Shown one piece after another: positions 128 through 17,108 of a stretch of 19,255 nt of DNA. Made by a program: the position numbers and the translations under genes. Under the pieces are notes generated by a model. That model was not told the origin of the DNA and searched no databases. It worked only from the letters and a program-made list of their open reading frames with translations. Source of the DNA: a virus. The number at the start of each line of letters is the position of its first letter. Position 1 is the first letter of the stretch. The stretch lies in IMG/VR virus record IMGVR_UViG_3300037515_000038, positions 1 to 19,255 of that record. One strand, given 5' to 3'.

Positions 128-1584
128 CCATGGCCGGGTTCGCCAAGAACATCGCCGGAGAGGGCGGGAGCATTGTCGAGGTCACCGAGAAACTCATCCA
201 GAGGGCTGCCGACTTCGCCTCGGTCCACAACATCGAGGTAGCCGACGCCCTCGGTATCTTCCAGTCCACCCTGGCCGGTCAGACCGAGCCGATACGCCGA
301 TACGGTAAGGACATCTCCGATGCAGCCATCAAGCTGTTCGCCTTGGAGACGGGGATCATCGACACCAAGCGGGAGATGACCGAAGGCGAGAAGCAGACCG
401 CCCGTTACGGGCTGTTGCTCCGTGAGACCGAAGACTGGGCTGGTGACTTCGCTGACACCGCTGGCGAGCTTGCCAACCAACAGCGGATAGCCAACGCCGA
501 GTTGGAGGACGCCAAAGCCAAGCTGGGTGAGAAGCTGGCCCCCGTCGTGTTGGAGGTCACACAGCTTTTCAGAGACTTCATCAATGTTCTGGGCGAACTC
601 CTCGATCTGCTTCCAGGAGTGGACGTGGGGATCATGGACATCGTCGAGGCCATCGTCCCCTTCGGCCAACAGATTGGTTGGGCCAAGGACCGGCTTGGGG
701 ATTGGAGCGACTCGATTGATGAGAACAACGAGAAGGAAGCCAAAGCCGAAACTCTCACCAAGCAGTGGACCCGTGCCCATGAGGCGATGCGGGGGGAACT
801 GGTCGAAGGTCGTCCCCCACTCCAAAGACACACTGAGGCTGTCGAAGACGCCACTGACGCCACCGAAGAACTCGCTGAGGAGACCCAGACCGCTGCCGAT
901 GCCATTCGGGATGTCCAGTCTGCTGCCCGTGAGGCTGTCGACCCGGTGTTCGCCTACATGCAGGGCACCCAGGAGCTAGCCGATGCTCAGGCTGCCTACA
1001 ACGCTGCTGTGGACGAGTTCGGGGTGAACAGCCCTGAGGCCATCCAGGCAGCCGAGGACATTGCCAGGGCCAACGGGAAAATCCAGGAGGCGGTGACCGA
1101 CATCGGTGAAGTGGGGGTGCCTGCTGCTATGGCAGCCCTCAAGTCGCTGGGTGTCCCCCAGGCGGTCATTGACAAGTTCGCTGCCGACAAGAAGCGCATC
1201 GAAGAAATCTTCCGCAACATGGTCCTCAGGATCGGTGTGTCGGCTCCGACCCTGTATCCGACCTCACCGTCCTCGGGAGGCGTTGGGTGGAAGTCAGAAT
1301 CCAGGAACTACTACGCCCACGGTGGTATCGCCAAGGCCCGTCCTGGTGGTGTCGATGTGGCTGCTGAGGCCGGGTCTGACGAGGCGATGATCCCCATGAA
1401 CTCGGAGGGGATCGGGATTCTGGCTGCCGCCATGAAGGAGGCCATCGGCGGGGGAGGCCAGGCGATCAACCTAATCGTCCCGGCGTCACGGTCCACCGCC
1501 ATCGACGGGTGGGACATCATCGAGATGCTCCAGAAGATCGAACAGTCGTCAGGGCCGCTTCCGATCAGGGTGAGGCAAGGCTGA
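1..1584 (+). CDS. Tail tape measure protein, 3' portion. The 5' portion is 18928..19255. The joined gene is 1785 nt, about 594 aa.
   Basis: Frame 1 is open from base 1 to the TGA at 1582..1584. It is in frame with ATG 18928 through the 127-bp overlap (201 nt, divisible by 3). The product is long, helical and Ala/Glu/Leu-rich with a TP901-type tape-measure core-like segment (SVHNIEVADALGIFQSTLAG...). It lies upstream of the minor tail genes. Confidence 0.85.
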   Translation: MTESTNAVEKTFGDAAEAILDIGRNSAESFGLSKAEFNSFAVSMAGFAKNIAGEGGSIVEVTEKLIQRAADFASVHNIEVADALGIFQSTLAGQTEPIRRYGKDISDAAIKLFALETGIIDTKREMTEGEKQTARYGLLLRETEDWAGDFADTAGELANQQRIANAELEDAKAKLGEKLAPVVLEVTQLFRDFINVLGELLDLLPGVDVGIMDIVEAIVPFGQQIGWAKDRLGDWSDSIDENNEKEAKAETLTKQWTRAHEAMRGELVEGRPPLQRHTEAVEDATDATEELAEETQTAADAIRDVQSAAREAVDPVFAYMQGTQELADAQAAYNAAVDEFGVNSPEAIQAAEDIARANGKIQEAVTDIGEVGVPAAMAALKSLGVPQAVIDKFAADKKRIEEIFRNMVLRIGVSAPTLYPTSPSSGGVGWKSESRNYYAHGGIAKARPGGVDVAAEAGSDEAMIPMNSEGIGILAAAMKEAIGGGGQAINLIVPASRSTAIDGWDIIEMLQKIEQSSGPLPIRVRQG

Positions 1585-2294
1585 TGCAGGCTATCTACCC
1601 CGGTCATGTGCTCGGAGGCTCCCCCCTCTATGTGGGGTTGACCCTCGGGGACATCCTCTACTTCGACGCCGATGACACCTTCGACTATCCCGACTACCCA
1701 GGGTTGAGGGCTGTTCGTGTGAAGGTTCAAGCTGGTGGGGCTGCCGGTGGGGGAGCGGCCACCACGGGGGCTTCTCAGTCGTCTGGAGGTAACGGTGGGG
1801 CTGGCGGAGGCTATTCAGAGAAGCTGATACTGGTTACAGCCCTGTCCCCCTCTGAGACGGTCACAGTGGGGGCTGGTGGGTCAGGAGTGGCCGGGGGGAC
1901 GGGAGGCGCTGGAGGGGCATCTTCTTTCGGCTCACACCTGTCAGCGTCGGGTGGTCTCGGCGGGGGAGTGGCAGGAGCGTCAGGCACCCTAACAGCGGGT
2001 GCCCCCTCGAACTCGGGTGGGGGAGTGGGAAGTGGTGGTGACCTGAACCTGGTTGGGTCTCCCGGTGGGGCGGTGCTGAGATACATAGCGACTAGGGTGC
2101 TCGGCGGGAGAGGGGCACACAGTCAACTGGGTGTGGGTGGAGTGGAAGGCTCGTCTACTTCCAGCACCAACGGCAACCCAGGCCGGGGATACGGGAGCGG
2201 CGGGTCAGGTGGCACCAACTCTCAGAACCAGGCGGGCACCGCTACTGGCGGGGGTGGAACGCCCGGCCTGATCATCGTGGAGCTTCTCTATTGA
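1584..2294 (+). CDS. Glycine-rich domain minor tail protein (236 aa)
   Basis: ATG 1584 overlaps the tape-measure stop (ATGA). The sequence VRVKVQAGGAAGGGA...GGNGGAGGGYSE...VTVGAGGSG...GGAGGASSFG...ASGGLGG matches the pattern of phage glycine-rich tail-fibre domains. GC3 is high. Confidence 0.7.
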   Translation: MQAIYPGHVLGGSPLYVGLTLGDILYFDADDTFDYPDYPGLRAVRVKVQAGGAAGGGAATTGASQSSGGNGGAGGGYSEKLILVTALSPSETVTVGAGGSGVAGGTGGAGGASSFGSHLSASGGLGGGVAGASGTLTAGAPSNSGGGVGSGGDLNLVGSPGGAVLRYIATRVLGGRGAHSQLGVGGVEGSSTSSTNGNPGRGYGSGGSGGTNSQNQAGTATGGGGTPGLIIVELLY

Positions 2295-4864
2295 TCCCGC
2301 TACCCGACCTCGCACAGTCGCTCCTGTGGGCTGGAGGCCAGATCGACGTTCGTGTCGAAGTGGACACCGGCACCACCGGCTCGGGAGACGAGTTCGCCCT
2401 GTGGGGTGAAGACCTTTGGGCTGAGTTCTTGTGGGGGTCGTCCGCACCAGGTTGGTTGGACCTGTCCATCTTCGTCCTCACCCTCGACTTCGACGGTGGG
2501 GCGGAACGGTGGGGGCAGAGGTTCAAGACTGGTAGCGCCACGATCATCCTCGACAACACGACAGGCATCTTCACCCAGGACGCTGACGTGGTTAAGCCGT
2601 TCCACCTTCCCTTCCGTCCTGGCCGCAAGATCAGGGTGGTGGCGATCCCCGACCCTTCCGCCGACCCTGAAAGCGTTGGCTACCGGGTGCCGCTGTTCAC
2701 CGGGGTCATCGACTCGACATCCGACGATTACGCATATGGGGCTTGGGACAACACGACCAGGGTGTTGTGTTTCGACAATGGGGCCGTCTGGTCTGGGTTC
2801 AACCCTCCCATGCTGTCCACGCCCACCGGGGTAGAACTGTCTTCAGATCGGATTACCTCGGCTCTTGACCGTCTCAACTGGCCGGTGGATGATCGGGACA
2901 TCCAGACAGGGGAGCATTCCCTCCAAAGCTCTGACCTGGCTCAGTCCACATGGGAGGAATGCCAGACCGCAGCCGACGCCGAAGGGGGAGCCTTCTTCGC
3001 AGGCAAGGACGGCAAGGCGGTGTTCAAGTCTCGTGACTGGCTGTCGGTGGAAGACCCGGACGACTCGGGGGTCGTCGTGCTGTCGTTTGCCTCACCGGCT
3101 GGTTCACCCTACGACCTGGCGTGGGATGGGTCGAGTCTGTGGCACACCGACGACGTGACCAACACGGTCTATGAGTTGGACCCGTCAGACGGTTCGGTCA
3201 TCTCCTCATTTGCGGCACCTGGCTCAAACTCGGCTGGGCTGGCCTGGGACGGGACGAATCTGTGGCTGTCCGACTACACGACCCAACTCATCTACAAGCT
3301 GTCCACGTCCGGCTCGGTCCTCGACTCGTTCGCCGCACCCGGTTCTTCGGCCAGCGGTCTGGCATGGGACGGGTCGTCACTCTGGCTGGCCGACTTCGGT
3401 GGGGAGGTCTATGAGATCGACCCGGACACCGGGTCAACCCTGTCCTCGTTCACCGGGCCGGGCACCCAGCAGACCGGTCTCACCTTCGACGGCACCAGTC
3501 TCTACCTGACGGACATGGTCCTCGACACCATCTACAAGTTCACGACCGAAGGCGTCCTCCTCGACTCTTTCCCTTCCCAGGGCGATCAGCCCCGTGGCCT
3601 CGGTTGGGATGGCCACTACCTCTGGCACTCGGACAAGCTGGCCGACCTCATTTACCGGCTGGCCCCTCCACGTAGAGGCCCCACCGAGATACAGGGTTAC
3701 CTCGGATACGACGAGGTCCCAGACGGGGTGCAGGGTGCCCATGTCATAGACGTTGACACATCATGGGAGTTGGCGAGGATCAGAAATCAGGTGCGGTTCG
3801 CCCGTGTCGGTTCGACCATGCAGGAGGCCGAAGACGCAACCTCCCAGACCCTCTACGGGGTGCGCTCATACGAGAGGACCGACTTCAAGAACAATGCTGA
3901 CGCCGACCTCGTCTTCCTCGCCGCACGTCATGTGAAGGTCCACAAGGACAACCGTATGCGTGTCGATGCGGTCACTATCGCCGGAGTGGTAGACGGTGAC
4001 AATGAGGACCTGAACCGGCTGCTGTGGGCCACCGAATACGGGGACCTGCTGTCGGTGAGAGTGATGACCGGACAGGGGTGGAGTTTCGAGCGTCTCGTCC
4101 AAGTGTTCGGCATCCACCATCACATCACCGGAGACGACTGGGAGGTCACCTTCCGTCTCGACGACGCTCAGATCAACTTCCTGGCGGGTCGTGACGTTCT
4201 TATGGCCCAGTCTGCTCCCGTCGCCTGGTGGAAGTTCTCCGAGTCGGGAGGGACCTCGACAGCGGACCAGGTGGGCACCCACACTCTCACCTGGAACGGC
4301 ACCCCCACCCTCGCATCGTCTGGTGGGCCTATCGCCGGGGGAGACGGGATAGCCACCCTCGACGGCACCGACGACTACGCCACGGTTGCCAATGAGGCAG
4401 ACCTGGAGCTTCACCAGAACATGACGTTCGAGGCTCGGGTCCGGCCCCATGACGCCACGGGAGCGTTGCAGGCGATCCTGTCGGTGAGAGGCACCGGGGA
4501 CGACCGCAACCTTTACTCCCTCTACTGGTATCCCGACAACTCGGTCTTCCGGTTCTACCCCCTCGGATCAGCGGGGGTATCGACCGACATCGCAGCGGGC
4601 GCTGCCAACGTCTGGCATCACCTTGTCGTCACCGTCGAGTGGACCGCCACCGAGCGTCGGATCACCCGCTATGTGGATGGGGTCCAGGGCTTCACGTCGA
4701 TCACCAGCTACCTGCCGTCTGTGATAGCCCGTGAGGCTAACGTCGGTCGGGAGGGGACAGACGGGGGAGAGTTCTTCAACGGGGACATCTCCGAGCTTGC
4801 CGTTTGGGATCGGTTGTTGGCCCCGTCTGAGATCACCAACCTTTACAACGCTAGCTATGAGTAG
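2291..4864 (+). CDS. Large minor tail / receptor-binding protein (857 aa). Dit-like (siphovirus distal tail) N- and C-halves are split by a 5-blade beta-propeller, followed by a C-terminal LamG/ConA-like lectin domain.
   Basis: The TTG start overlaps the upstream stop (TTGA). The N-terminus (KTGSATIILDNTTGIF...PGRKIRV) resembles phage-tail-family Dit proteins. Five 40-41-aa repeats occupy 3083..3668. The C-terminus (about 4200..4861) has Laminin_G_3 hallmarks (LDGTDDYATV...WHHLVVTV...FNGDISELAVWDRLLAPSEITNLY). Confidence 0.8.
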   Translation: MIPLPDLAQSLLWAGGQIDVRVEVDTGTTGSGDEFALWGEDLWAEFLWGSSAPGWLDLSIFVLTLDFDGGAERWGQRFKTGSATIILDNTTGIFTQDADVVKPFHLPFRPGRKIRVVAIPDPSADPESVGYRVPLFTGVIDSTSDDYAYGAWDNTTRVLCFDNGAVWSGFNPPMLSTPTGVELSSDRITSALDRLNWPVDDRDIQTGEHSLQSSDLAQSTWEECQTAADAEGGAFFAGKDGKAVFKSRDWLSVEDPDDSGVVVLSFASPAGSPYDLAWDGSSLWHTDDVTNTVYELDPSDGSVISSFAAPGSNSAGLAWDGTNLWLSDYTTQLIYKLSTSGSVLDSFAAPGSSASGLAWDGSSLWLADFGGEVYEIDPDTGSTLSSFTGPGTQQTGLTFDGTSLYLTDMVLDTIYKFTTEGVLLDSFPSQGDQPRGLGWDGHYLWHSDKLADLIYRLAPPRRGPTEIQGYLGYDEVPDGVQGAHVIDVDTSWELARIRNQVRFARVGSTMQEAEDATSQTLYGVRSYERTDFKNNADADLVFLAARHVKVHKDNRMRVDAVTIAGVVDGDNEDLNRLLWATEYGDLLSVRVMTGQGWSFERLVQVFGIHHHITGDDWEVTFRLDDAQINFLAGRDVLMAQSAPVAWWKFSESGGTSTADQVGTHTLTWNGTPTLASSGGPIAGGDGIATLDGTDDYATVANEADLELHQNMTFEARVRPHDATGALQAILSVRGTGDDRNLYSLYWYPDNSVFRFYPLGSAGVSTDIAAGAANVWHHLVVTVEWTATERRITRYVDGVQGFTSITSYLPSVIAREANVGREGTDGGEFFNGDISELAVWDRLLAPSEITNLYNASYE
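3083..3668 (+). repeat. Five tandem 40-41-codon repeats encoding NHL/glutaminyl-cyclase-like beta-propeller blades
   Basis: Repeat starts (SF..) fall at 3083, 3206, 3326, 3446 and 3566. The consensus is SFaaPGs..sGLAWDGssLWl.D.....iYel....Gsvl. Confidence 0.85.
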
Positions 4865-4874
4865 GAGGCCCTAA

Positions 4875-5801
4875 ATGCCTGAGATCATTGATGTAGTCGA
4901 CAGCGAAGACCTGGCTGTTGCCGAGTGGGCCAACGCCATCAGGGACCGCACCGTCCAACGCTACAACGACCTGTCCACCCGCACCACCGAGCACGCCACA
5001 CCGGCTGCTGGGGACCTCAGCTTCCTCGAAGACTCGGGGGCTTTGGAGGTCTACTTCGGAGGCTCATGGAGAGGTCTGCTGCCCACCGGGGCTGTCATCG
5101 CCCATGCGGGGACCACAGCGCCGTCTGGGTGGCTACTCGCCAACGGTGCCGAGGTATCCAGGACAACCTATGCCGCCCTGTTCGCTGTCATCGGGACAGT
5201 GTTCGGGGTTGGTGACGGCTCGACCACGTTCAACCTGCCCAACCTGAAACAGAGGTTCCCGCTGGGGAAGGCCGACTCGGGCACCGGAGCGGCGGTGGGA
5301 GCTACTGGTGGTGCGATCGATCATGTTCATTCGGGGCCTTCGCACACCCACACCGGGCCGTCGCACACCCACACGATGGGCACCCACACCCATTCCAACC
5401 CGAGCACAGCAGCGAATGGCTCCCACGCCCACTTCATCGACGGGGGTGCCACCGCATCGGGGGGAAGCCACACCCACTCGTTCTCCGACTCGTTCACTAC
5501 TGGTGGCGGGTCAGGCACGACCTCCAAGGAGGGGGGAGCGTTCCTGGCTTCCGTTCCGGCTCACACCCACACGGGTTCAGTGTCAGGGACGACCGGCTCG
5601 GGAGGTTCGCACACCCACGGGCCGGGAACCCTGGACACCGACTCGGCAGGGAGCCACACCCACACTCAGGGGGTTACCGGGGCCACCGATCCTGGAGACA
5701 CCAACGCTGCGGGCACTGGGGCTACTGGTGCGGGGGGAACCGGGAGCACAGGCACCCAGAACCCACCGTTCCTGACCCTGCTGTTCATAGTCAAGATATG
5801 A
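4875..5801 (+). CDS. Tail fibre protein with a phage tail-collar domain and a His-rich HxH-repeat C-terminal shaft (308 aa)
   Basis: AGGAGG lies about 10 nt upstream of the ATG. The collar motif is PTGAVIAHAGTTAPSGWLLANGAEVSRTTYAALFAVIGTVFGVGDGSTTFNLPNLKQRFPLG. It is followed by nine HxH motifs (HVH, HTH x7, HAH). Confidence 0.8.
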   Translation: MPEIIDVVDSEDLAVAEWANAIRDRTVQRYNDLSTRTTEHATPAAGDLSFLEDSGALEVYFGGSWRGLLPTGAVIAHAGTTAPSGWLLANGAEVSRTTYAALFAVIGTVFGVGDGSTTFNLPNLKQRFPLGKADSGTGAAVGATGGAIDHVHSGPSHTHTGPSHTHTMGTHTHSNPSTAANGSHAHFIDGGATASGGSHTHSFSDSFTTGGGSGTTSKEGGAFLASVPAHTHTGSVSGTTGSGGSHTHGPGTLDTDSAGSHTHTQGVTGATDPGDTNAAGTGATGAGGTGSTGTQNPPFLTLLFIVKI

Positions 5802-5811
5802 GGAGAACACC

Positions 5812-6042
5812 ATGACTACACCAGCCGAACTGACCGTCAACGAGGCAGCCGACTACCTGAAGATCACACCCGAGGAGTTGGTCTTCTCCCGTGCTCGGGG
5901 TCTGCCACCAGGGAAGGTGGGCTACACCAGGGGAGGGCAGTTGTTCTTCCGCAAGGTGGACCTGATCCCACCGAAGCCCACCAAGAAGCCTAAGCCTCAA
6001 GTAGAGGTTGAGACCAACCCTCAACCAGTGGTTGAAGGTTAG
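5812..6042 (+). CDS. Helix-turn-helix (excisionase/MerR-like HTH_17-type) DNA-binding protein with a Lys/Pro-rich tail (76 aa)
   Basis: GAGGAG lies upstream of the ATG. The pattern LTVNEAADYLKITPEELVFSRARGLPPGKVGY...FFRKVDL fits HTH_17-type domains. Confidence 0.6.
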   Translation: MTTPAELTVNEAADYLKITPEELVFSRARGLPPGKVGYTRGGQLFFRKVDLIPPKPTKKPKPQVEVETNPQPVVEG

Positions 6043-6601: not shown

Positions 6602-6865
6602 GTGTCGCTCTGCACTGGTCGGGGGTCGCTAAGAGGGCAGCACTGCTGTTTCGTCAACGGGCTGGTCTGCCAATACCTGGAGTTGGGGACCGTCCCTGGA
6701 CGCACGTTCGTCTGCGGGTTGAGACGCCAACTCGGCTCGTGGGAGGCCGTCCACGCTGACCCCGGCTACATCGAGAACGTGCAACGGTTTTGGGATGTCC
6801 ACCCCAATATCACATCGTGTGGCGACTGGCAGCCGGAACCTGGCATGTGTTGTAGGGAGACCTGA
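6602..6865 (+). CDS. Small Cys-rich hypothetical protein (87 aa, 8 Cys)
   Basis: GTG 6602 lies 2 nt after the upstream stop. The TGA at 6863..6865 overlaps the next ATG. Third-position G/C is about as strong as in neighbouring genes. The start is uncertain because the ORF is open from 6554. Confidence 0.45.
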   Translation: MSLCTGRGSLRGQHCCFVNGLVCQYLELGTVPGRTFVCGLRRQLGSWEAVHADPGYIENVQRFWDVHPNITSCGDWQPEPGMCCRET

Positions 6866-8430
6866 TGGCAACCCTGAACACCCTCGCCCTCGGCACTTTC
6901 ACCAACGGTAATGACACGGCGATCACCGGGGCTGAGCCGGTCCTCCAAGAGATCGCCTCCGCCGACGACGCCAAGAACGTCCACGACACTGCCAATACAA
7001 CCCACACCGGGATAGCCAAGTTCACCCTTGAGAATGTGAACTCGGACCTGGGCAACATGGACACCCTGTTCATTCGGCTCCGCTACGCCAACTCGAACAC
7101 TCCAGTCAACAACACGTGGGATTCGCTAAGAGCACATGTCTTCAAGTCTGATGGGGTCACCGGGCTAGCAGGCGGGACTTCGCTTTCGGTGGACCGGGTG
7201 GTAGCCACCGATATCACCGCCACCATCCCGACCAACTCAGCAGTTGTCAACTTCATCGCAGTAGACACCGCGGCGACGAAGGACGACTGGGATGGGGCGA
7301 TCGTCGAAGTCAAGTTTTACATCACCAAGAGCATGGCCGGTGACGCCATCGAAGAACGGGTGTTCGCCGCTGAGATCACCGGCACCTACACGCCCGCATC
7401 CAACACTTTCACCGGCTCGGCCAACGTCACCCAAGACGACAACACGTCCGATGCTGCTGGGACGCACACTCCACCCACGTTCACCGGGTCAGCCTCCGAA
7501 ACCCAGGATGACAACACCGCTGACGCTTCGGGGACGTTCACCCCTCCGACGTTCACCGCCACAGCAGCACCCACACAGGAGGACAACACTTCGGCAGCCA
7601 CAGGGACGTTCGTTGTTGGCCCGGTGTCGGGGTCAGCCAACGCCACCCAAGACGACAACACGTCCGAGGCTGCTGGCACTCACACACCACCAACGTTCAC
7701 CGGCAGCGCAGCACCAACCCAAGACGACCAGACCTCGACCGCCACAGGCACCTTCACCGACCCTGTCTACACCGGGGAAGCCTCACCAACCCAAGACGAC
7801 AACACGTCTACAGCCACCGGCACGTTTGTCCCTGGCACTCTCACCGGGTCGGCTGATGCCACTCAGGATGACAACACGGCTACTGCGGTCGGGACTCACA
7901 CACCACCAACATTCACCGGTTCAGTGTCGGTCACCCAGGACGATCAGACTTCGAGCACGACAGCCACGTTCACCGACCCTGTCTACACCGGGTCGGGGGC
8001 TTCGAGCCAGGAGGACAACACATCCACAGCCACCGGCACGTTCACTGCTTCTGAACGGACGGGTTCTGGAGCGCCAACCCAAGACGACAACACTGCTGTT
8101 GGCGCTGGCACGTTTGTCCCGCCTGGCTTCACCGGTTCTTTGGCAGCCGTCCAGGATGACAACCTTGTCGTCGCAGCAGGCACGTTCAGCCTCCCCACCT
8201 TCACCGGGTCAGGCTCTCCCGTCCAAGAGGACAACACGTCGGTTGCTACTGGCACTCACACGACAGACACGATCGCCGGGTCAGCAGCTATCACCCAGGA
8301 CGATCAGGTGCTGGTTGGTGTGGGCACGTTCGCCTGGAACCTCCAGGTTGCCGAGTTCGACGTGCCCTACACGAGACAGTTCATAGGCCGGTTCCCCAAG
8401 TATCCGCTGGTCGACCCGGACAACCGATGA
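6865..8430 (+). CDS. Repeat protein (521 aa): a unique 181-aa N-terminal domain, 13 tandem 24-aa Thr/Ser/Asp-rich repeats, and a short C-terminal tail
   Basis: The ORF is coupled at both ends (ATGA overlaps at 6865 and 8427). The repeat consensus is FTGSa..TQDDNTS.A.GT(F/H)TPPT. Confidence 0.8.
   Translation: MATLNTLALGTFTNGNDTAITGAEPVLQEIASADDAKNVHDTANTTHTGIAKFTLENVNSDLGNMDTLFIRLRYANSNTPVNNTWDSLRAHVFKSDGVTGLAGGTSLSVDRVVATDITATIPTNSAVVNFIAVDTAATKDDWDGAIVEVKFYITKSMAGDAIEERVFAAEITGTYTPASNTFTGSANVTQDDNTSDAAGTHTPPTFTGSASETQDDNTADASGTFTPPTFTATAAPTQEDNTSAATGTFVVGPVSGSANATQDDNTSEAAGTHTPPTFTGSAAPTQDDQTSTATGTFTDPVYTGEASPTQDDNTSTATGTFVPGTLTGSADATQDDNTATAVGTHTPPTFTGSVSVTQDDQTSSTTATFTDPVYTGSGASSQEDNTSTATGTFTASERTGSGAPTQDDNTAVGAGTFVPPGFTGSLAAVQDDNLVVAAGTFSLPTFTGSGSPVQEDNTSVATGTHTTDTIAGSAAITQDDQVLVGVGTFAWNLQVAEFDVPYTRQFIGRFPKYPLVDPDNR
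7408..8343 (+). repeat. 13 x 72-bp in-frame tandem repeat
   Basis: Units start at 7408 + 72n. Unit 13 starts at 8272 (atcgccggg...). Units 1-9 show a 3-unit super-period: GTHTPPT / GTFT.P. / GTFV.... Confidence 0.95.
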
Positions 8431-9008: not shown

Positions 9009-9715
9009 ACGTGGTCATACCTGTAGGGCCGAACCGGGCAGACACTCTCCGCTGGGTGTTGAGGACCATCCACCAGCATCTGGCTGTGGACCGGGTGGTG
9101 ATCGTCGGGGACATCCCCGGCTGGGTGCGAGGAGTAGAAACCCTCAGCGTCTCCCAACACCGGGATCGGGCCACCAACCACCGTGCCAACATCGAGGCGG
9201 TCCTCGACCACGATCTCGAAGACTTCGTCTGGTGGGACGACGACCATTTCATCCTCGAAGACCGGGACACCATCCCCCTCTACAACGCCGGGTTCGTGTC
9301 CACCTACCTGGCAGCCAAGAAGTCTCAGATGAGGGCGCTGGCAGCACCAGGGGAGTATCAGCGGGCTTTCCAAATGTGCTTCGGCCTGTGCTCAGAGTGG
9401 GGTTATGACGATGTCCTGATGCCTCCACACGTCCCTATGCCCGTAGAGAAGGCGTCCCTGGCCTCCCTGGTCTCCGACACCGACAGATCGGGCCTCGACC
9501 GTAAGGAGATGATGTGGGCGGTGTGGAAGGCCGCATACCTGACCCGTGTGGTCTCCCCTGAGAACTCGACCCACCTTGCCGACCCGAGGCACCGTCACCT
9601 TGACAATCCTGACAGCCCGACAGACGGGTTCTGGGCGACAACAGCCAACCTGTGGACGACCAACACCTGGATCAAAGACCGATACTGGCGTCCATCACCC
9701 TACGAGGCCACCTGA
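9005..9715 (+). CDS. Glycosyltransferase-like protein (236 aa; GT-A fold / Stealth-CR2-like with a DDD motif)
   Basis: GTG 9005 overlaps the upstream stop (GTGA). The segment NVVIPVGPNRADTLRWVLRTIHQHL..DRVVIVGD, followed by DFVWWDDDHFIL, resembles the first strand, helix, second strand and DXD motif of GT-A enzymes. The ORF track start at 8987 is an alternative. Confidence 0.45.
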   Translation: MNVVIPVGPNRADTLRWVLRTIHQHLAVDRVVIVGDIPGWVRGVETLSVSQHRDRATNHRANIEAVLDHDLEDFVWWDDDHFILEDRDTIPLYNAGFVSTYLAAKKSQMRALAAPGEYQRAFQMCFGLCSEWGYDDVLMPPHVPMPVEKASLASLVSDTDRSGLDRKEMMWAVWKAAYLTRVVSPENSTHLADPRHRHLDNPDSPTDGFWATTANLWTTNTWIKDRYWRPSPYEAT

Positions 9716-9975
9716 TGGAAAACTTCCTCTACACTGCTGCTGCGATCGTCGCGTTGGCCGCAGCCCTGAAAGCAACGTTCTACCTGATCGCCAAACTCCG
9801 TCAGACCGGCAAGCTGATGGAGGCGTTGTTCGAGTTGACAAGGGAGGACGACTGGCCCAACGGTGCCGAATCCCTCCAAGCCTCCCATCAGGAACTCTAC
9901 GACAAGGTGTCCAGCATCGAGACTTCCATCAAGGAACTACAGACGGCTGTGGAGCAGGTGCTGACCGGTCGGTAG
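9715..9975 (+). CDS. Small membrane protein (86 aa): one N-terminal TM helix plus a coiled-coil tail. This is a holin-like candidate and the last gene of the long operon.
   Basis: ATG 9715 overlaps the upstream stop (ATGA). FLYTAAAIVALAAALKATFYLIA is a hydrophobic helix. The C-terminus is charged and helical. Confidence 0.6.
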   Translation: MENFLYTAAAIVALAAALKATFYLIAKLRQTGKLMEALFELTREDDWPNGAESLQASHQELYDKVSSIETSIKELQTAVEQVLTGR

Positions 9976-9984
9976 ACATTCATG

Positions 9985-10398
9985 CGAACGTTCAAGCTTC
10001 CTCCCATCCTTCACCCAGCGAACCGCGAGCGTAGCGAGCACGGGAAGAGGGGAGAAACCGGTAGCTGCCCTTGGCAGCGGTAGGTGTCGACCTCTTAACA
10101 TGAAGGTCAGGTGCATATCCTTAGGGGGTTCTCGCTGCGAAATGCCTGGTGACAGACTTTGTACGAATAACGGTCTTATGTGGGCTACCGCCTGCCCTGG
10201 TTAGTGGCTTCTCCTATTGTCCTGAGCCTGCCCGATGCCAGGGGCTTCGTTCGCCCGAACGTTTATGGCGGCGCGCTAAGACGTTGGGAGAGAGGGGAAA
10301 GAGTGCTATTCTTTCGATCGACGATCACCATCATCAGAGAGTAACACCCCTTCGGGGGTGTTCTCTCGTCTCAACCCTTTTTCTTTCAGACGAACGTT
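9985..10398. promoter_or_regulatory. Three dispersed exact copies of CGAACGTT in the large non-coding region (9985..9992, 10256..10263, 10391..10398)
   Basis: Read directly from the sequence. The first copy lies inside the palindrome GAACGTTC. Confidence 0.55.
10343..10387 (+). terminator. Candidate intrinsic terminator or stable RNA hairpin with a C(UUCG)G tetraloop
   Basis: A perfect 8-bp stem joins AACACCCC (10343..10350) and GGGGTGTT (10355..10362) around the loop TTCG. A T-rich run (tttttcttt) begins about 15 nt downstream. Confidence 0.4.
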
Positions 10399-10595
10399 TG
10401 AGGACCCTTGGGTGGTATGCTCGGCCCATATTCGCCCGAGGTCATTCTTGGCCATCCTTCTAAATATGGGCGGATCGGCACTCCTCTTCCTGTCACCGCA
10501 TTTGGGGGAGTGCTACCCAAGTGGGTGCCACTATGGTGCCACTCTTTGAGCGTTATTCAAGAAGTAGCTGAGAGCGGCTTGCCCCTCAAATCATG

Positions 10596-10604
10596 TGATA
10601 AGAT
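10596..10604 (+). promoter_or_regulatory. Candidate extended -10 promoter (TGATAAGAT), giving a leaderless or near-leaderless mRNA for the HTH gene
   Basis: TGnTAAGAT ends 8 nt before ATG 10613. There is no Shine-Dalgarno sequence before that ATG. The tandem GGTGCCACT repeat lies upstream. Confidence 0.35.
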
Positions 10605-10612
10605 CCCCATCC

Positions 10613-10816
10613 ATGACAGAGCTACTCGACCCGAGACAAGTGGCAGACCTCCTGGGGGTCACCGTGCAGCGTCTCGCTAACTGGCGCTACCGAGGGCGAG
10701 GACCGAACTACATCAAGCTCGGCTACCGGTCCATCCGCTACCAGCGAGCCGATGTGGAGCAGTGGCTGGCCGAGCACACCATCCGCGCAGAGGACCACCC
10801 GAAGGTGCTATCGTGA
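10613..10816 (+). CDS. Helix-turn-helix DNA-binding protein (67 aa; excisionase/AlpA-like HTH_17). Candidate early regulator.
   Basis: The sequence LLDPRQVADLLGVTVQRLANWRYRGRGPNYIKLGYRSIRYQRADVEQWL is a classic HTH_17 pattern. The ORF is also open from GTG 10595. Confidence 0.75.
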   Translation: MTELLDPRQVADLLGVTVQRLANWRYRGRGPNYIKLGYRSIRYQRADVEQWLAEHTIRAEDHPKVLS

Positions 10817-10886
10817 GATCACCACAACCTGACATAACGTGGATTAGGCACCAACATCAGGCACTTAACCCACGGGATTGGCTTCT

Positions 10887-11177
10887 ATGCGCTCTGAGCT
10901 TCACAGCGTTCTCGCGGACATCGTCTCCGCTCGAATCCACCTGGACGCCGTCAAAGACCGGGCCATCATCGAAATGCGTCAAGGCCACCGTCCCACCTAC
11001 CGTGGCCACGAGTGGGGGAGAGACCAGTTCGACGCGCTCGAACAGGTCGGCTATGCGGTCGAAGCAGCATTCTCCCTGCTCAAAGCCCTCCAGTTCCCTG
11101 AGACTCAAAGCTCACGGCTCGAAGACGCCCGCATCATGCTTGACTCCCTCGACACGCCAGCCCAGCTTTCCTCATAG
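10887..11177 (+). CDS. Hypothetical helical protein (96 aa)
   Basis: GC3 is strong in this frame. The overlapping 175-aa ORF (10762..11289) has an off-frame-like Ser/Pro/Thr/Arg composition. The alternative TTG start is at 10878. Confidence 0.6.
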   Translation: MRSELHSVLADIVSARIHLDAVKDRAIIEMRQGHRPTYRGHEWGRDQFDALEQVGYAVEAAFSLLKALQFPETQSSRLEDARIMLDSLDTPAQLSS

Positions 11178-11210
11178 CCCAGGCAGGGTAAAACCCGCCA
11201 CCCTGTCATT

Positions 11211-11262
11211 CGAACATTGCAACGTTCGCTCGAACGTTCCATTCACTCCTTATTCGAACGTT
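11211..11262. promoter_or_regulatory. Cluster of four CGAACGTT-type sites: 11211 degenerate CGAACATT, 11221 reverse copy AACGTTCG, 11231 exact, 11255 exact
   Basis: Read directly from the 104-bp intergenic gap between 11177 and 11282. Confidence 0.6.
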
Positions 11263-11281
11263 TACCGGGGGGAGGCCCAAC

Positions 11282-11632
11282 ATGGCTAGGAGACACGGAT
11301 TCGCACGGATAGGACGCCGACGCCCTGAATGGGACATCTGGCAGGCGATGGTCCAACGCTGCACCAACCCCAACCACAAGGAGTACCCCCGGTATGGAGG
11401 CCGCGGCATCACCGTATGCGACCGCTGGACCGAACCTGACGGAGACGGTTTCCTCAACTTCCTCTACGACATGGGGTCCAGGCCCGCCAACCCTGAAGGC
11501 TGGAGTCACCGCCTCGCGTACTGGACGCTCGACCGGATCGACAACGACGGCCACTACGAGCCAGGCAACGTCCGCTGGGCTACCTGGTCCCAGCAGGCGT
11601 TCAACCGGCGTCCAAAGACGGTGACAGCATGA
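11282..11632 (+). CDS. HNH-like (His-Me finger variant) DNA-binding/endonuclease-family protein (116 aa)
   Basis: GGAGG lies 6 nt upstream. The segment YPRYGGRGITVCDRW...FLNFLYDMGSRP...LDRIDNDGHYEPGNVRWATWSQQAFNRR matches a family widely annotated as HNH endonuclease in actinophages. Confidence 0.65.
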   Translation: MARRHGFARIGRRRPEWDIWQAMVQRCTNPNHKEYPRYGGRGITVCDRWTEPDGDGFLNFLYDMGSRPANPEGWSHRLAYWTLDRIDNDGHYEPGNVRWATWSQQAFNRRPKTVTA

Positions 11633-11850
11633 CCTACCGCATCGACAACGATGGACCTCATCCTCTTATCGCAGCCGCTATCAGGATCGCCGCGGATGGG
11701 CCATTCTCGCCACCCAAAGCCTCCAAACGTGCCCTCATAGACCGTGCCCTGATAGACGACCTCAGACACCAACTCGACCGGGCGGGCTACGCCGACCACT
11801 GGCGGGACCTGGCCTACGACCTCCGAATCCAAGAAAGAACCACCCCGTGA
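11629..11850 (+). CDS. Hypothetical protein (73 aa)
   Basis: ATGA overlap with the upstream gene, and high GC3. Confidence 0.55.
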   Translation: MTYRIDNDGPHPLIAAAIRIAADGPFSPPKASKRALIDRALIDDLRHQLDRAGYADHWRDLAYDLRIQERTTP

Positions 11851-11933
11851 ACCCTGACCCCTATTCGAACCTCATCCCCTGGATCATGGTCAGCATCATC
11901 TGGCTCATCGTCATTGTGAGGCTCGCCACATGA
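11847..11933 (+). CDS. Possible 28-aa hydrophobic micro-protein (VNPDPYSNLIPWIMVSIIWLIVIVRLAT)
   Basis: GTG 11847 overlaps the upstream stop (GTGA). Its TGA at 11931..11933 overlaps the next ATG (ATGA). It fills an otherwise empty 79-bp gap. An internal ATG is at 11886. Confidence 0.25.
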   Translation: MNPDPYSNLIPWIMVSIIWLIVIVRLAT

Positions 11934-12118: not shown

Positions 12119-12378
12119 TCAAGACACAACGAACCAGATTGACCGTCATAGCAGTAGTGTTCGGCGTGTTGGTGATGCTGCTGGCTGCCGCTCCCGATGT
12201 AGCGCCCAGCACACCTCAGACACCCTCCAATCCAGAAGCCTGTGATACGGCCCTCACCAACCATGAACTCACCGTCGACCGGATAGACATAGCCAAAGCT
12301 CAGGGGGACACCACTGAAGCCAGACGCCTGGAGGCCATCAGGAAAGCTGCATACGCTCACATCCAGGCCAACTGTTGA
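12115..12378 (+). CDS. Membrane-anchored or secreted small protein (87 aa)
   Basis: GAGGAG lies upstream. The N-terminus KTQRTRLTVIAVVFGVLVMLLAAAP is a signal-anchor-like helix. Confidence 0.6.
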   Translation: MIKTQRTRLTVIAVVFGVLVMLLAAAPDVAPSTPQTPSNPEACDTALTNHELTVDRIDIAKAQGDTTEARRLEAIRKAAYAHIQANC

Positions 12379-12632
12379 CCCGCCTCATATCCCCCCTATC
12401 CCCCCCCATGAGACGTGAATATGACAAGAGGCTCTACAGACGCAACCGCAAGCTCCTCCTCTCCACACGCCCCAGATGCGTCCTATGCCCCGCACCTGCC
12501 AAGACAGCAGACCACATCATCCCGGTCAGCAAAGGCGGGACATCGGCCCTATCCAACCTCAGACCAGTCTGTGTTCCCTGCAACTCATCACGAGGAAACA
12601 GGACCAGAACACGAGAGTCACACCCATACTGA
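12375..12632 (+). CDS. HNH endonuclease, terminase-associated position (85 aa from TTG 12375, or 74 aa from ATG 12408)
   Basis: The sequence CVLCPAPAKTADHIIPVSKGGTSALSNLRPVCVPCNSSRGNR is a canonical HNH/His-Me motif with Cys pairs. The gene lies directly upstream of the large terminase. Confidence 0.85.
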   Translation: MTRLISPLSPPMRREYDKRLYRRNRKLLLSTRPRCVLCPAPAKTADHIIPVSKGGTSALSNLRPVCVPCNSSRGNRTRTRESHPY

Positions 12633-12697
12633 ACCGGATGCCGTTTTTTTGATATGAGCCACCCCGACCACCCTGCCCCCCGTTTTCGTTTAGGTAT

Positions 12698-14179
12698 ATG
12701 AGCACTCGATCCCTCCCTACTAAGAGCACACGGTCTCGTGCCCGCACTCGGTTCGAGACGAAGCCGACCAAGGGGTCGAAGACCTGGACCCAGGACCTGA
12801 TCCGCATGGCCGACGAGTTGGGGACGCCTCTGATGCCGTGGCAGAAGAAGGGTGCCCGTCTGCTCGGTGAGCTTCGGGATGAGTGGTGCATCTGCCATGA
12901 CCCGCCTCGTCTGCTGCCCCGATACAAGACGGTGGTGGTCTCGGTGTGCCGCCAGCAGGGGAAGACGGTCCTGGCGCGGGTGGCGATCAGCACCAAGGCT
13001 GAGTCGGAGTGGGACCTGAAGATGTATGGGACGGCTCAGTCCCGCCAGTATGCGGCCCGCCATGTGGTCTCTCTGGGAGATTTCCTCCAGCAGACGGACC
13101 CTCTGTTGACGGTGAAGCGGGGTGTGGGAAACGAGGTTGTCGAATGGGAGAACGGCTCCACCTATCTGCCTATCTCCCCGACCGAAGGTGGCGGGCATGG
13201 TGACTCGATCGACTTTCTCCTGGTGGACGAGGGCTGGGCGGTGTCCGCTGTCACCTTGGGAGGCGTGGTTCCCGCCATGACCGCTCGACCCCACTCGCAA
13301 CTGCTCGCCATCTCGACTATGGGCACCGTCGACTCGGAAGTGTGGAACGGGATCGTCACCCAGGGCCGTGAGGCTGTGGACGACTCAGGTTCGGACATCG
13401 CCTACATCGAATATTCGGCTCCGTCAGATGAGGCTGTCTTTGATGAGTCACAGTGGCACACCTGGATGCCCGCCTTGGGGATCACCGTCTCCTACGACGA
13501 CATCCGCTCGGCCATGAAGCTCCTGGAGGCTGCCGAGGGCCGCAACGAAGTGGTGAGAGCCTTCGGGAACCGGACGGTGAAAACACTGGTGACCGTGTTC
13601 CCCGGCGACTACGTGGAGAAGGCATGGAGGGTAATCGACCCGCCCGACAGATTCGTGTTGGCAGTAGACATCAACGACGAGCCTGCCGGGGCTGCTGTCG
13701 CCACCGGGCATCTCGGGGAGGTTGACGGTGTGGTGGGTGGTGCGGTTCGGATCATCGAAGCCCGCTACGGGACGCCACGGTGGCTGCCCTCCTACGTCGA
13801 GGGGGTGCTCAGGAGTCGTGAGGTTGAGGCTGTCGTGGGTGACTTCGGCGGTCCTGCCCGTGAGGTCAAAGCGGAGCTAACAGCCATCTGTGAGGAGAAC
13901 CTGGTGCCTCTCATCGACCGGGTGCCCCGAGACCTGGCAGCCGACACCCGACGCTTCTACGACGGCCTCAGAGAAGGCACCGTCTACCTGAACAAGTCCG
14001 AATTCCTGGCCGAAGCGTTGGCAGGAGCAAGACGGAAAGACTTCTCCGACACCGGGCTGTGGGTGGTATCCCGTGGCCGCATGTCGGTCGACGCCTCCCC
14101 ACTGATCGCAGCGATCATGGCCCACGGGCTGGCGACGGAATTGTCGGTGTCACCCAAGGTCGAGTTCTTCGTCTATTGA
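12698..14179 (+). CDS. terL: Terminase large subunit (493 aa)
   Basis: Walker A-like VCRQQGKTV and Walker B-like DFLLVDEGW are present, followed by a C-terminal nuclease-type region. The gene lies upstream of the portal. Confidence 0.9.
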   Translation: MSTRSLPTKSTRSRARTRFETKPTKGSKTWTQDLIRMADELGTPLMPWQKKGARLLGELRDEWCICHDPPRLLPRYKTVVVSVCRQQGKTVLARVAISTKAESEWDLKMYGTAQSRQYAARHVVSLGDFLQQTDPLLTVKRGVGNEVVEWENGSTYLPISPTEGGGHGDSIDFLLVDEGWAVSAVTLGGVVPAMTARPHSQLLAISTMGTVDSEVWNGIVTQGREAVDDSGSDIAYIEYSAPSDEAVFDESQWHTWMPALGITVSYDDIRSAMKLLEAAEGRNEVVRAFGNRTVKTLVTVFPGDYVEKAWRVIDPPDRFVLAVDINDEPAGAAVATGHLGEVDGVVGGAVRIIEARYGTPRWLPSYVEGVLRSREVEAVVGDFGGPAREVKAELTAICEENLVPLIDRVPRDLAADTRRFYDGLREGTVYLNKSEFLAEALAGARRKDFSDTGLWVVSRGRMSVDASPLIAAIMAHGLATELSVSPKVEFFVY

Positions 14180-15423: not shown

Positions 15424-17108
15424 CCGACAGATCTAGAGACGACCAAGGCCGGTTCCTCCCCGACGCCGTCTACCCCGACGAGGAGATGGCTCTGGAGGTC
15501 AGGGACTTCGAGCGCCGGGAGATCGTCGCCCGTTTGCTCCCTTACAACGAGCCGATCCTGGTCCGTGGAAGGCCAGAGTCGTTTGTGAGGGGTGCTGTGG
15601 CGGGCATCGACCCCACGTCGATCAAGCTGCTCTCCTTCCACGACCAGCGCCGTCCCATCGGCAAGAGCGTCGAGTTGGAGGAGCGAGACGACGGAGCCTA
15701 CGTCCGATTCCGCATCTCGAAGACCACCGAAGGCGACGAGATGCTCGAACTCGCCAACGACGGGGTCCTCTCCATCTCCCCAGGCTTCATCCCAGGCGTC
15801 CAGAACCAACAGGGTGTTCATCAGAGGTTGAAGGCCCTACCCGAAGCGTCCTTGGTGACCTTCGCTGCATACAGCGGAGCCAAGGTCCTGTCCGTAAGAG
15901 AAAAGGAGGCCGCAATGGCCGACAACAAGCCCACAACCGAACCTGTCGAGGAGCCAGCCGTGCAGACGGTTGACCTCGGCCCCATTGAGACACGTCTGAA
16001 GGACCTCTCGACCCAGATCGAGACCCTCCAGTCGGTGGTCGATGCCCCAGCCCGCAACCTGCCAGCCGGTGGTCCCACACCGTTCGACTGGTTCATGGCG
16101 CAGATGGAGGAAAGACTCCAGCCTCGCTCCATGCAGTATCGGGAAGCCCTCGATGAGAAGTGGGAGAACTTCCAGACCCGAGCCAAGGAGGGGACACTCC
16201 AGACCCGTGCCCTAGCCGACATCACTGGTGGGCAGACCCAGGCCGGTGACAACGACCCAGCCGACGACCTGTCGGGTCTCGTGGTCGAGGAGTATCTCGC
16301 CTCTCAACTGGTGAGCATCCTTGACCGGAGACGGCCACTGTTCGCCAGCTTCGGCTCGTTCCCGTCACCCCGTTCTGGTTACGCCCGCATCCCGGTCGTC
16401 ACCCAGCACGTCACGGTGGCTGCCCGCACCGCCCAGAAGACGGAGCCGACCAGCCAGAAGATGATCCTGAAGACCGAGCCGTTCGAGGCGAAATGGTTGG
16501 ACGGAGCACTCGACGTGGCTATCGAGGTCACCCAGATGGCCGAGCTTCCCGTCATGGAGATGGTGTGGGAGGACCTGAGAGGCGCATACGCCGCAGCCAC
16601 CGAGCACGATGTCACCAACGGTGCCGTGCCCTGGTTCGAGGCTGGTGCCCTCGGGTTCACCTACACGGGCACAGCCCTCGACACTGCCACCTACGCCGGG
16701 TTCATAGCCGACGTGGAGGAGCAGATCGACACCATCGAAGATGCGGCCGGGGAGCCTCCCAGCGTCCTGGCCGTCACCCGTGCCCAATGGCGGGTCCTGG
16801 TGGCGATGGTCGACGCCAACGACCGGAGACTGTTCTCCACGATCAACCCTCAGAACGCTGACGCCTCGGTGGGTCTCACCGCCCGGTCGTTCAGCCTTCC
16901 CGGTGGGATCGAAGTGTTCAAGGTGAAGGGTCTCACCCAGGCAGCCCTCTACGGGCCGTCTGCCCTCCGTGCCACCGACTACGGCCCGTCACGGGTCGAA
17001 GCGACCAACGTGGCCCTGATGGGTCGGGACATCGGCATCCTCGGACGGACCATGCTGGTCAACCGAATCCCTGCCGGTGTCGTTGTGTTCGGAACCGAAC
17101 CGTCCTGA
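15420..17108 (+). CDS. Fusion of prohead (HK97/S78-type) protease, a scaffold-like linker and the major capsid protein (562 aa)
   Basis: The N-terminal 150 aa or so resemble the HK97 protease (LLSFHDQRRPIGKS..., GVLSISPGF). A coiled-coil linker follows (ETRLKDLSTQIETLQSV). The C-terminal 300 aa or so are HK97-fold capsid-like. No stop separates them. An in-frame internal SD plus ATG is at 15903..15917. Confidence 0.8.
   Translation: MTDRSRDDQGRFLPDAVYPDEEMALEVRDFERREIVARLLPYNEPILVRGRPESFVRGAVAGIDPTSIKLLSFHDQRRPIGKSVELEERDDGAYVRFRISKTTEGDEMLELANDGVLSISPGFIPGVQNQQGVHQRLKALPEASLVTFAAYSGAKVLSVREKEAAMADNKPTTEPVEEPAVQTVDLGPIETRLKDLSTQIETLQSVVDAPARNLPAGGPTPFDWFMAQMEERLQPRSMQYREALDEKWENFQTRAKEGTLQTRALADITGGQTQAGDNDPADDLSGLVVEEYLASQLVSILDRRRPLFASFGSFPSPRSGYARIPVVTQHVTVAARTAQKTEPTSQKMILKTEPFEAKWLDGALDVAIEVTQMAELPVMEMVWEDLRGAYAAATEHDVTNGAVPWFEAGALGFTYTGTALDTATYAGFIADVEEQIDTIEDAAGEPPSVLAVTRAQWRVLVAMVDANDRRLFSTINPQNADASVGLTARSFSLPGGIEVFKVKGLTQAALYGPSALRATDYGPSRVEATNVALMGRDIGILGRTMLVNRIPAGVVVFGTEPS

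Follow-up and report, generated by a model that had tools for sequence, protein, structure and literature searches.

The virus record IMGVR_UViG_3300037515_000038 of IMG/VR comprises 19,255 nucleotides (the window, i.e. the whole stretch of DNA that was analysed) and ends with a 127-bp duplicate of its own start, which reduces it to a 19,128-bp circle. It represents a small tailed phage of 19 kb with every gene on one strand. Our subject is the 8-mer CGAACGTT, which recurs in the two intergenic regions flanking a short group of early genes, the first of which encodes a 67-amino-acid (aa) helix-turn-helix (HTH) protein, hereafter HTH-67. The features of this locus are, in window coordinates:

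9956..11929, plus strand: mosaic control module of about 2 kb that contains every box and is replaced wholesale in the lineage of the relatives L254 and L165
9975..9992, plus strand: putative operator O1, GACATTCA-TG-CGAACGTT (exact 8-mer; left arm 5/8)
10246..10263, plus strand: putative operator O2, TTCGTTCG-CC-CGAACGTT (exact 8-mer; left arm 6/8)
10284..10312, plus strand: candidate promoter Pa, with -35 TTGGGA (10284-10289), 17-nucleotide (nt) spacer and extended -10 TGCTATTCT (10304-10312)
10343..10387, plus strand: terminator-like hairpin AACACCCC-TTCG-GGGGTGTT plus a T-rich run, from sequence and fold
10381..10398, plus strand: putative operator O3, TTCTTTCA-GA-CGAACGTT (exact 8-mer; left-arm match)
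10413..10421, plus strand: candidate promoter Pb, extended -10 TGGTATGCT
10596..10604, plus strand: candidate promoter Pc, extended -10 TGATAAGAT, its end 8 nt short of the start codon at 10613
10613..10816, plus strand: gene of HTH-67, a 67-aa winged-helix protein (excisionase/BldC/RdfS-like; Pfam HTH_17), the proposed binder of the boxes
10806..10814, plus strand: candidate promoter Pd, extended -10 TGCTATCGT, upstream of the gene at 10878-11177
10878..11177, plus strand: module-specific gene of about 96-99 aa, encoding a long helical hairpin that lacks an HTH
11182..11207, plus strand: hairpin with an 8-bp stem and no T-run, from its fold, directly upstream of the gap-2 boxes
11211..11218, plus strand: accessory half-site CGAACATT, one mismatch
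11221..11238, no strand assigned: putative operator O4, the perfect dyad AACGTTCG-CT-CGAACGTT (exact inverted 8-mers)
11255..11262, plus strand: solo half-site CGAACGTT (exact 8-mer; left arm only 2/8)
11282..11632, plus strand: gene of an HNH-like protein of 116 aa (phrog_374), the first gene after gap 2
11863..11873, plus strand: possible degenerate box ATTCGAACCTC, weak (two mismatches in the 8-mer), in the third intergenic region of the module

Exhaustive counting returned six exact copies of CGAACGTT, five on the plus strand (9985, 10256, 10391, 11231 and 11255) and one on the minus strand (11221), exactly where an earlier note, made from the letters of this DNA, had placed them, and confirmed the one-mismatch copy CGAACATT that the same note had listed at 11211. 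The extended forms that it described (GAACGTTC at 9986 and 11232, TTCGAACGTTT at 11253) were recovered as well, as was CAACGTTC at both places inside genes, about 7691 and about 9773, for which it had reported partial matches. Genome-wide, 0.52 copies of the 8-mer are expected and none of 200 dinucleotide-preserving shuffles reached six, in keeping with the argument of the note that fewer than one copy is expected in 19 kb and that the clustering is not chance; in the two gaps alone, taken at their own composition, the expectation is 0.02 and the maximum in 20,000 resamples was three. Under our gene model the intergenic segments of 20 bp or more number nine and add up to 1,477 bp; all copies are confined to two of them, gap 1 (9976-10612) and gap 2 (11178-11281), so that the exclusive placement in the regions flanking the HTH module stands. 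A check for comparable numbers of exact copies inside genes found zero, one-mismatch copies occurring there at chance level. An unbiased scan restricted to intergenic DNA ranked CGAACGTT first, with 6/6 genomic copies intergenic and the next-best k-mers at three. As a caveat, a Poisson test across the whole genome placed it only 12th of 2,001 k-mers, since several coding k-mers are enriched above it by a 72-bp protein repeat; what distinguishes the 8-mer is its exclusive intergenic placement, not its genome-wide rank. The repeat in question, at 7404-8300 within the gene at 6865-8430, is a 72-bp (24-aa) unit nested in a 216-bp period, with copies about 74% alike, and is where most of the repeated k-mers at the top of the genome ranking come from; the 521-aa product of that gene is without family match, and its L254 ortholog is 85% identical. 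Gap 1 lacks the codon-position GC periodicity that both flanking genes show and is thus truly non-coding, and no plausible small open reading frame was found in it. The boxes are not an assembly artefact, because the region is 100% identical in L378 and L379, from two other sequencing runs.

The earlier note took the 8-mer as the unit. The real unit is an 18-bp dyad of 8-2-8 layout in which CGAACGTT is the strong right half and the left half is degenerate; four such dyads (consensus nnCnTTCr-NN-CGAACGTT) and two accessory half-sites are present. With the 2-bp spacer, 15 of the 24 left-arm positions of O1-O3 match (P=1.1e-4), and at spacers of 0, 1 and 3-8 bp the left-arm match is background only. 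O1, with its strong half at 9985-9992, reaches into the stop codon (9973-9975) that closes the final gene of a long rightward operon, and the centre of O2 lies about 64 bp upstream of the inferred Pa start. In gap 2 the half-site at 11211 faces the left arm of O4 head-to-head, offset from it by 10 bp, and the half-site at 11255 follows the right arm of O4 by 24 bp and stands 20 nt ahead of the ATG at 11282, which is preceded by the ribosome-binding site GGGAGG. The analogy with start-associated sequences that had been proposed does not hold, only one of seven boxes lying near a start codon. Of the two flanks of each intergenic AACGTT core, six in all, only the one that faces the dyad centre carries CG and the outer one never does, an asymmetry that the dyad layout explains. 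Five of the six CGAACGTT copies point along transcription, and a repeat check around the boxes did not place them within longer duplicated segments.

The boxes share this DNA with a cluster of promoter motifs. Six occurrences of the extended -10 pattern TGNTANNNT were found in the genome, five of them within 502 bp (10304-10814) and four of these on the plus strand, a clustering with a scan P of about 1e-5 (composition-aware P=5e-5) that marks the promoter hub of the phage. Exactly 17 nt separate the AACGTT of O3 from the Pb -10 hexamer downstream, which puts AACGTT at the -35 position. Since only 8 nt separate Pc from the start codon of HTH-67 and no Shine-Dalgarno sequence is present, the sequence suggests that HTH-67 mRNA is leaderless. 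The strong TTCG-loop hairpin and its T-run begin about 30 nt after Pa and are invariant in the relatives L167 and L166; Pa and the terminator (10304-10387) would give a transcript of about 55-65 nt, of which the 5' part (10316-10333) is hypervariable, L167 and the window showing 10 differences over its 18 nt. Pa is faced by an extended -10 motif on the minus strand (10346-10338). Just 3' of Pb lies the inverted repeat GCCCATAT...ATATGGGC (10424-10471; 8-bp arms 32 nt apart), in whose arms the L167 substitutions (10425 and 10465) are not compensatory. The contents of gap 2 are the hairpin at 11182-11207, the boxes and the ribosome-binding site that serves the gene at 11282; no TANNNT (sigma-A-type -10) motif was found in it. 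Scans of the window with Rfam and for tRNA gave zero matches, and a reading of the gaps in terms of RNA structure is disfavoured, as gap 2 and gap 1 fold no better than shuffles (z = -1.1 and -1.2, respectively).

Comparison with relatives indicates that the module of about 2 kb is exchanged as a unit, because the similarity to the L254/L165 lineage (L254 and L165 come from the same sample) ends at 9955 for the former and resumes at 11930 for the latter. From the tail genes to 9955 the sibling L254 shares 88-93% identity with the window, and its large terminase is 88% identical, but in place of the module it carries a cassette with a different gap of 909 bp, a 62-aa HTH_17 protein and not one copy of CGAACGTT; the 99-aa gene is absent. 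Its HTH_17 ortholog shares only 58% identity with HTH-67, the recognition helix and wing being among the parts that differ. L254 is temperate: its interval 9403-10646 holds the HTH_17 gene, then a tRNA-Val fragment bracketed by two copies of GAGTGCCTCTGGAGTGCCT, and finally a tyrosine integrase encoded on the minus strand. The fragment looks like the 3' half of tRNA-Val(TAC), and its sequence GGCGGTTCGAGTCCGTCAACGCCCACA is the probable attP core. Exactly four copies of GAGTGCCT are found in L254, two on each side of the tRNA-Val fragment; they are probably integrase arm-type sites and, given this appearance, were not counted as co-variation between protein and site.

None of the relative loci fetched is enriched for CGAACGTT, and the motif is gone beyond about 95% identity. 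The earlier note had named lack of conservation in relatives as evidence that would count against its proposal; the motif is indeed not conserved, but its absence there says nothing against function because the whole module of about 2 kb is swapped. Closer variants keep the boxes. In L167 (95% identical) boxes 2 and 3 are retained among 42 differences in 597 bp of gap 1, O2 having an intact 8-mer and a single left-arm change (C10248T), and the longest run free of differences (10334-10424, 91 bp; P=0.036) spans the terminator, O3 and Pb. In L166 (99.3% identical) gap 2, including O4, is unchanged. The more distant L087 and L002 (54-65% terminase identity) have unrelated early regions in which the motif is absent, and L101 encodes a 48%-identical HTH in an unrelated context. 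Terminase-profile scans of metagenome and viral collections returned mostly contigs that start at the terminase and hence are without the boxed region, and the perfect dyad gave only five unrelated single matches in viral contigs, i.e. chance level. The motif does not travel with the HNH-like gene either: the loci with homologs of this gene, 809 kb in all, contained 16 copies, a number that does not exceed chance, and these showed no placement upstream of the gene. In the more distant cultured relatives, Curtobacterium phage Barebow and the Microbacterium cluster EE phages, regulatory HTH genes and a large non-coding gap occupy the equivalent slot. One of the latter, VitulaEligans (L377; MH371124), has private repeats in the equivalent control region (15965-16946), namely three copies of GAGCTAGGGG in a 510-bp gap and a tandem 9-bp CCCCACA(A) present in two copies directly upstream of gp23 and in three upstream of the HTH gene gp24.

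HTH-67 is the sole DNA-binding protein encoded in the module. It passes the gathering threshold of Pfam PF12728 (HTH_17) with 42.7 bits against 27 (E=6.8e-11), and a profile built with its two homologs matched RdfS (2.6e-5) and BldC (1.4e-3) in the PDB. Searches with the single sequence gave weak matches to DNA-binding domains of small terminases, a 73-aa AlpA-family regulator, RdfS and Pukovnik Xis. A single-sequence AlphaFold (AF2) model (predicted local distance difference test, pLDDT, 79) places helices at residues 7-14, 18-24 and 45-54 and beta strands at 33-36 and 39-42; as modelled, this is a winged-helix topology of the class of about 60-70 aa, without further domains. Members of its family, small winged-helix proteins, bind DNA at short repeats. 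Other roles were considered for it and set aside. An AlpA-type processive antiterminator has a long N-terminal segment that reaches into the RNA exit channel and its HTH at about residues 128-142; with 67 aa and the HTH domain alone, HTH-67 is too short. As a recombination directionality factor it would lack a partner, the window being without an integrase (by Pfam and tblastn) and without a tRNA-like core. The 99-aa protein gave no family matches and no significant structural match, and it was rejected as a binder since, in addition, it has no HTH (its AF2 model, pLDDT 80, consists of three helices).

We propose that the CGAACGTT boxes are operators for HTH-67, a reading to which we assign a probability of about one half. 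We infer the identity of the binder and the sign of its effect from the anatomy and enrichment of the boxes, their linkage to the module, the family of the protein and the clustering of the promoter motifs. Boxes, HTH-67 gene and promoters share one swapped module, and in L254, where CGAACGTT is lacking, the HTH has diverged; enrichment, exclusive placement and dyad architecture point the same way, as do the promoter cluster and the position of the O3 AACGTT at the -35 of Pb. The retention of boxes in close variants, with an unchanged gap-1 run over terminator, O3 and Pb, the regulatory HTH genes in the equivalent slot of Barebow and the EE phages, and the published precedents of D29 Gp36, BldC and RdfS lend further support. 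The earlier note had offered operator or iteron sites for the HTH protein at 10613 or that at 5812, or origin iterons. Only an operator role for the first, in the form argued here, finds support. The protein encoded at 5812 is disfavoured as the binder, as its ortholog is 92.5% identical in L254, where CGAACGTT is absent, and origin iterons are not supported, there being no tandem array, no detectable initiator gene and no inflection in GC skew.

HTH-67 has neither an effector nor a dimerisation domain; it would bind the boxes as dimers or small cooperative oligomers. On O3 it would occupy the -35 position of Pb, which may result in autoregulation or early shut-off. The O4 cluster sits between the hairpin and the ribosome-binding site of the first gene in a run of about 17 kb of packaging, structural and lysis genes, and HTH-67 bound there could gate transcription into the late genes; activation or anti-pausing is favoured over a roadblock at this cluster because an accumulating early protein should switch the late genes on. 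O1 and O2 may contribute cooperativity or looping.

Several points weigh against this proposal. The binding of HTH-67 to the boxes is a proposal from sequence, and the sites of BldC, Xis and D29 Gp36 are direct repeats whereas those of the window are inverted 8-2-8 dyads. Foldseek ranks the proteins matched by its sequence first for HTH-67, yet without significance (best E=0.2), and its scores against the NCBIfam excisionase and BldC families are below the cut-offs; the BldC family NF033787 gave no match to HTH-67 and 18.7 bits, against a cut-off of 77, to the L254 ortholog. Pa-Pd are promoters predicted from consensus matches, and a two-hexamer -35/-10 scan of the window gave zero promoters. 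The retention of boxes 2 and 3 in L167 is, taken alone, not significant (P=0.32). Among 5.8 billion proteins no close homolog of HTH-67 was found besides itself, and none in viral contigs, and the four related contigs are 95-100% identical. Finally, O4 equals the core of a host-type LacI operator, to which a host protein could bind.

The remainder of the genome bears on the host and on the physical end of the molecule. Its other features are:

94-5801: tail genes
5812-6042: weak HTH_17 protein
ending at 9975: lysis-region block
12375-12632: canonical HNH endonuclease, 85 aa, adjoining the genome end
12698-14179: large terminase

A portal protein and a protease-capsid fusion are also encoded, and the gene at 11282 leads the run toward the HNH gene, the genome end, the terminase and the structural genes. 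Two HNH-type genes (11282-11632 and 12375-12632) lie in this one 19-kb genome. The annotated terminase start at 12698 is probably too far upstream, database versions having 448-457 aa. No small terminase was recognisable in the window phage, its group or its cultured relatives, and no record of the product of 9652-9975 was found elsewhere. Searches with megablast and tblastn against deposited phages found none that is close; the portal protein has counterparts in the cluster EE phages and Barebow at about 35% identity, and these phages have the same small-genome architecture (PMC7302621). The host is probably an actinobacterium, because the related terminases that carry names come from two Acidimicrobiia metagenome-assembled genomes and the relative L002 encodes WhiB. 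As the contigs of four relatives (56-86% terminase identity) begin at positions that map to 12661-12712, a physical or cohesive genome end would lie just before the terminase gene, between it and the HNH gene (12633-12712).

The identity of O4 with a LacI operator core raises the question of a host transcription factor, with a LacI-family repressor as the extreme case, binding the boxes and tying late transcription of the phage to host physiology. We consider this unlikely in its general form, in which any host factor would be the binder. The perfect dyad was sought in 185,579 species genomes and matched at least 120 times, mostly in Chloroflexota; 76 of these matches extend to the conserved tandem operator GCGAACGTTCG-cg-CGAACGTTCGC, and 68 of the 76 precede a LacI-family gene (PF00356 plus Peripla_BP_3), at a median distance of 22 bp. 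A central CG in an AACGTT-type core is typical of LacI-family operators. In these 68, which belong to the loci L256-L375 (e.g. L261:1734-1751) and come almost all from Chloroflexota (Anaerolineae and relatives), the LacI regulator has about 340 aa; the tandem operator stands beside TATAAT-like boxes and looks like the operator of an autoregulated, phylum-wide LacI regulon. That the phage copied the operator of a sugar-responsive host repressor of this family into its late-operon gateway is more improbable still. If it had, late expression and lysis would depend on a metabolic signal of the host, the degenerate dyads O1-O3 would serve as auxiliary sites, and the host would be Chloroflexota or another bacterium with that regulator, whereas the host suggested by the relatives is actinobacterial. 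In none of the six cores, moreover, do the phage sites have the outer CG/GC flanks (GCGAAC/GTTCGC) needed by a symmetric dimer, the left arms of O1-O3 are without AACGTT so that only the O4 core matches, the phage has no LacI gene, and the window and the Chloroflexota loci share neither sequence nor protein similarity. The identity of O4 with the LacI operator core is probably a coincidence. A LexA (Cheo) box was also rejected, its GAAC-N4-GTTC spacing being absent from the sequence.

The orientation of the boxes could alternatively mean that they are promoter elements for RNA polymerase carrying an alternative sigma factor, e.g. of the extracytoplasmic function (ECF) type. GAAC and CGTT resemble the ECF -35 and -10 cores, five of six copies lie along the direction of transcription and gap 2 is without a sigma-A -10 motif; in the boxes, however, GAAC and CGTT are contiguous, the spacings available in gap 2 are 19 and 23 nt as opposed to the usual 16-18 nt, a dyad with a fixed 2-bp spacer is the signature of a protein dimer and not of a promoter, and O1 overlaps a stop codon with nothing immediately downstream to transcribe. 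We give this proposal little credence. The note's own idea of iterons at an origin of phage DNA replication is very unlikely: repeated short sites do occur in the largest non-coding region, with a GC content of 55% against 61%, but the boxes are dyad-shaped and dispersed at distances of 135-840 bp with no tandem direct array, no initiator, helicase or primase gene is detectable, and the cumulative GC skew has no inflection at either gap.

Two further proposals draw on the weak resemblances of the module proteins and on the architecture of L254. Packaging sites (cosB- or pac-like) served by HTH-67, perhaps with the 99-aa protein, as a split small terminase would suit a phage group without a recognisable small terminase; pac sites are often in or beside terS, HTH-67 weakly resembles the small-terminase domains of lambda gpNu1, 6HN7 and 7LW0, and the 99-aa hairpin weakly matches the G20c small-terminase core. 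Every one of these similarity scores is insignificant, though, the likely genome end at 12661-12712 is 1.4-2.7 kb from the boxes, the sibling with an 88%-identical terminase lacks both boxes and 99-aa gene, and its HTH lies beside attP and integrase in an excisionase-like placement, all of which makes a packaging role hardly credible. Nor do we find it plausible that the boxes are recombination relics (excisionase or integrase arm sites) left by the loss of an integrase and devoid of any present regulatory role, as the adjacency of the homologous L254 HTH to an attP-like tRNA-Val fragment, two GAGTGCCT pairs and a tyrosine integrase might suggest, given that the window has neither integrase nor tRNA-like core and that its boxes span 1.3 kb on both sides of the HTH gene, coincide with promoter elements, are not parts of longer duplicated segments and exist in six exactly conserved copies, which argues for present selection.

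If the boxes are operators of HTH-67, as is most likely, the locus would be a genetic switch of an ordinary kind in which the exact box sequence is new; the finding is real, well defined and testable, yet unsurprising to a specialist, its unusual element being the identity with the LacI operator, and the capture of a host operator by a phage would itself be unusual. If the proposal is right, an early-to-late programme would be run by one 67-residue protein and about six boxes in an exchangeable cassette of 2 kb, among the most compact modules for studying how excisionase-type proteins turn into regulators after the loss of the integrase. L254 provides the natural before-and-after pair, sharing the structural genes and having a cassette with integrase, attP and an HTH of 58% identity. 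In practical terms the value is modest, consisting of an explicit operator set and of boxes that may mark the cassette in metagenomes.

Short private repeats in phage control regions are well known. The stoperators of cluster A mycobacteriophages are many asymmetric 13-14-bp sites that occur genome-wide, oriented along transcription, with an immunity repressor, whereas the dyads of the window lie in a 2-kb module and protein family scans found no repressor-type gene in the window. Start-associated sequences (clusters K and EF) take the position of the ribosome-binding site before many starts; in the window only the half-site at 11255-11262 is within 30 nt of a start, and it lies upstream of a separate GGGAGG. 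Private intergenic repeats, mostly without a known binder, have been described in Microbacterium clusters EC, EF, EG and EI and in cluster O mycobacteriophages (PMC7302621, PMC4351075). The 18-bp repeat of cluster EG, GATCAACC-NN-GGTTGATC (PMC7302621), and the 17-bp repeat of cluster O, TGTTCGG-NNN-CCGAACA (PMC4351075), resemble our dyads in being multicopy elements of intergenic non-structural DNA with short inverted arms and a spacer of 2-3 bp; the layout of the former is the identical 8-2-8, and the latter shares the inner GTTCG...CGAAC half-sites at a different spacing. Those repeats, however, have both arms conserved, recur throughout their cluster and number 8-34 copies per genome, mostly 14-22 bp upstream of starts, unlike the four dyads of the window, which have one weak arm, are restricted to one module and are in no case start-proximal, although one half-site is. 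The tandem operator of the Anaerolineae LacI regulators has the identical 18-bp core AACGTTCG-NN-CGAACGTT, including the 2-bp spacer, but it is a 24-bp double palindrome with outer flanks beside a LacI gene, and the phage sites have neither.

Closer parallels are found among the small winged-helix proteins. RdfS, the best match of the HTH-67 profile (2.6e-5), binds attP and promoters and thereby coordinates expression (PMC11963761), and the ortholog in the sibling L254 occupies the classic excisionase position; RdfS differs in having no clear consensus site and an extra N-terminal helix for filaments (PMC11963761), and the window is without integrase and attP. BldC of Streptomyces, an actinobacterial winged-helix protein of 68 aa without dimerisation or effector domain (HTH-67 profile E=1.4e-3), cooperatively binds variable numbers of short (9-bp) repeats (PMC5859096; PDB 6AMA, 6AMK), but does so head-to-tail on direct AATTnnnnC repeats and mostly by indirect readout (PMC5859096), whereas the boxes of the window are inverted and sharply conserved. 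The nearest precedent is Gp36 of the lytic mycobacteriophage D29, which on binding to AGGCGGCG-N13-AGGCGGCG acts as a repressor of early as well as late genes downstream (PMC12266134). Its motif is unrelated to CGAACGTT and forms one direct-repeat pair near gene 1, as opposed to four inverted dyads and two half-sites over 1.3 kb, for which binding is proposed from sequence. The two systems are alike in their very small, excisionase-family MerR-like winged helix without partner integrase function and in an 8-bp motif repeated about two helical turns apart (24 bp between 11231 and 11255 in the window), and for D29 Gp36 it is experimentally established that a regulator of the protein class of HTH-67 acts on an 8-mer repeat.

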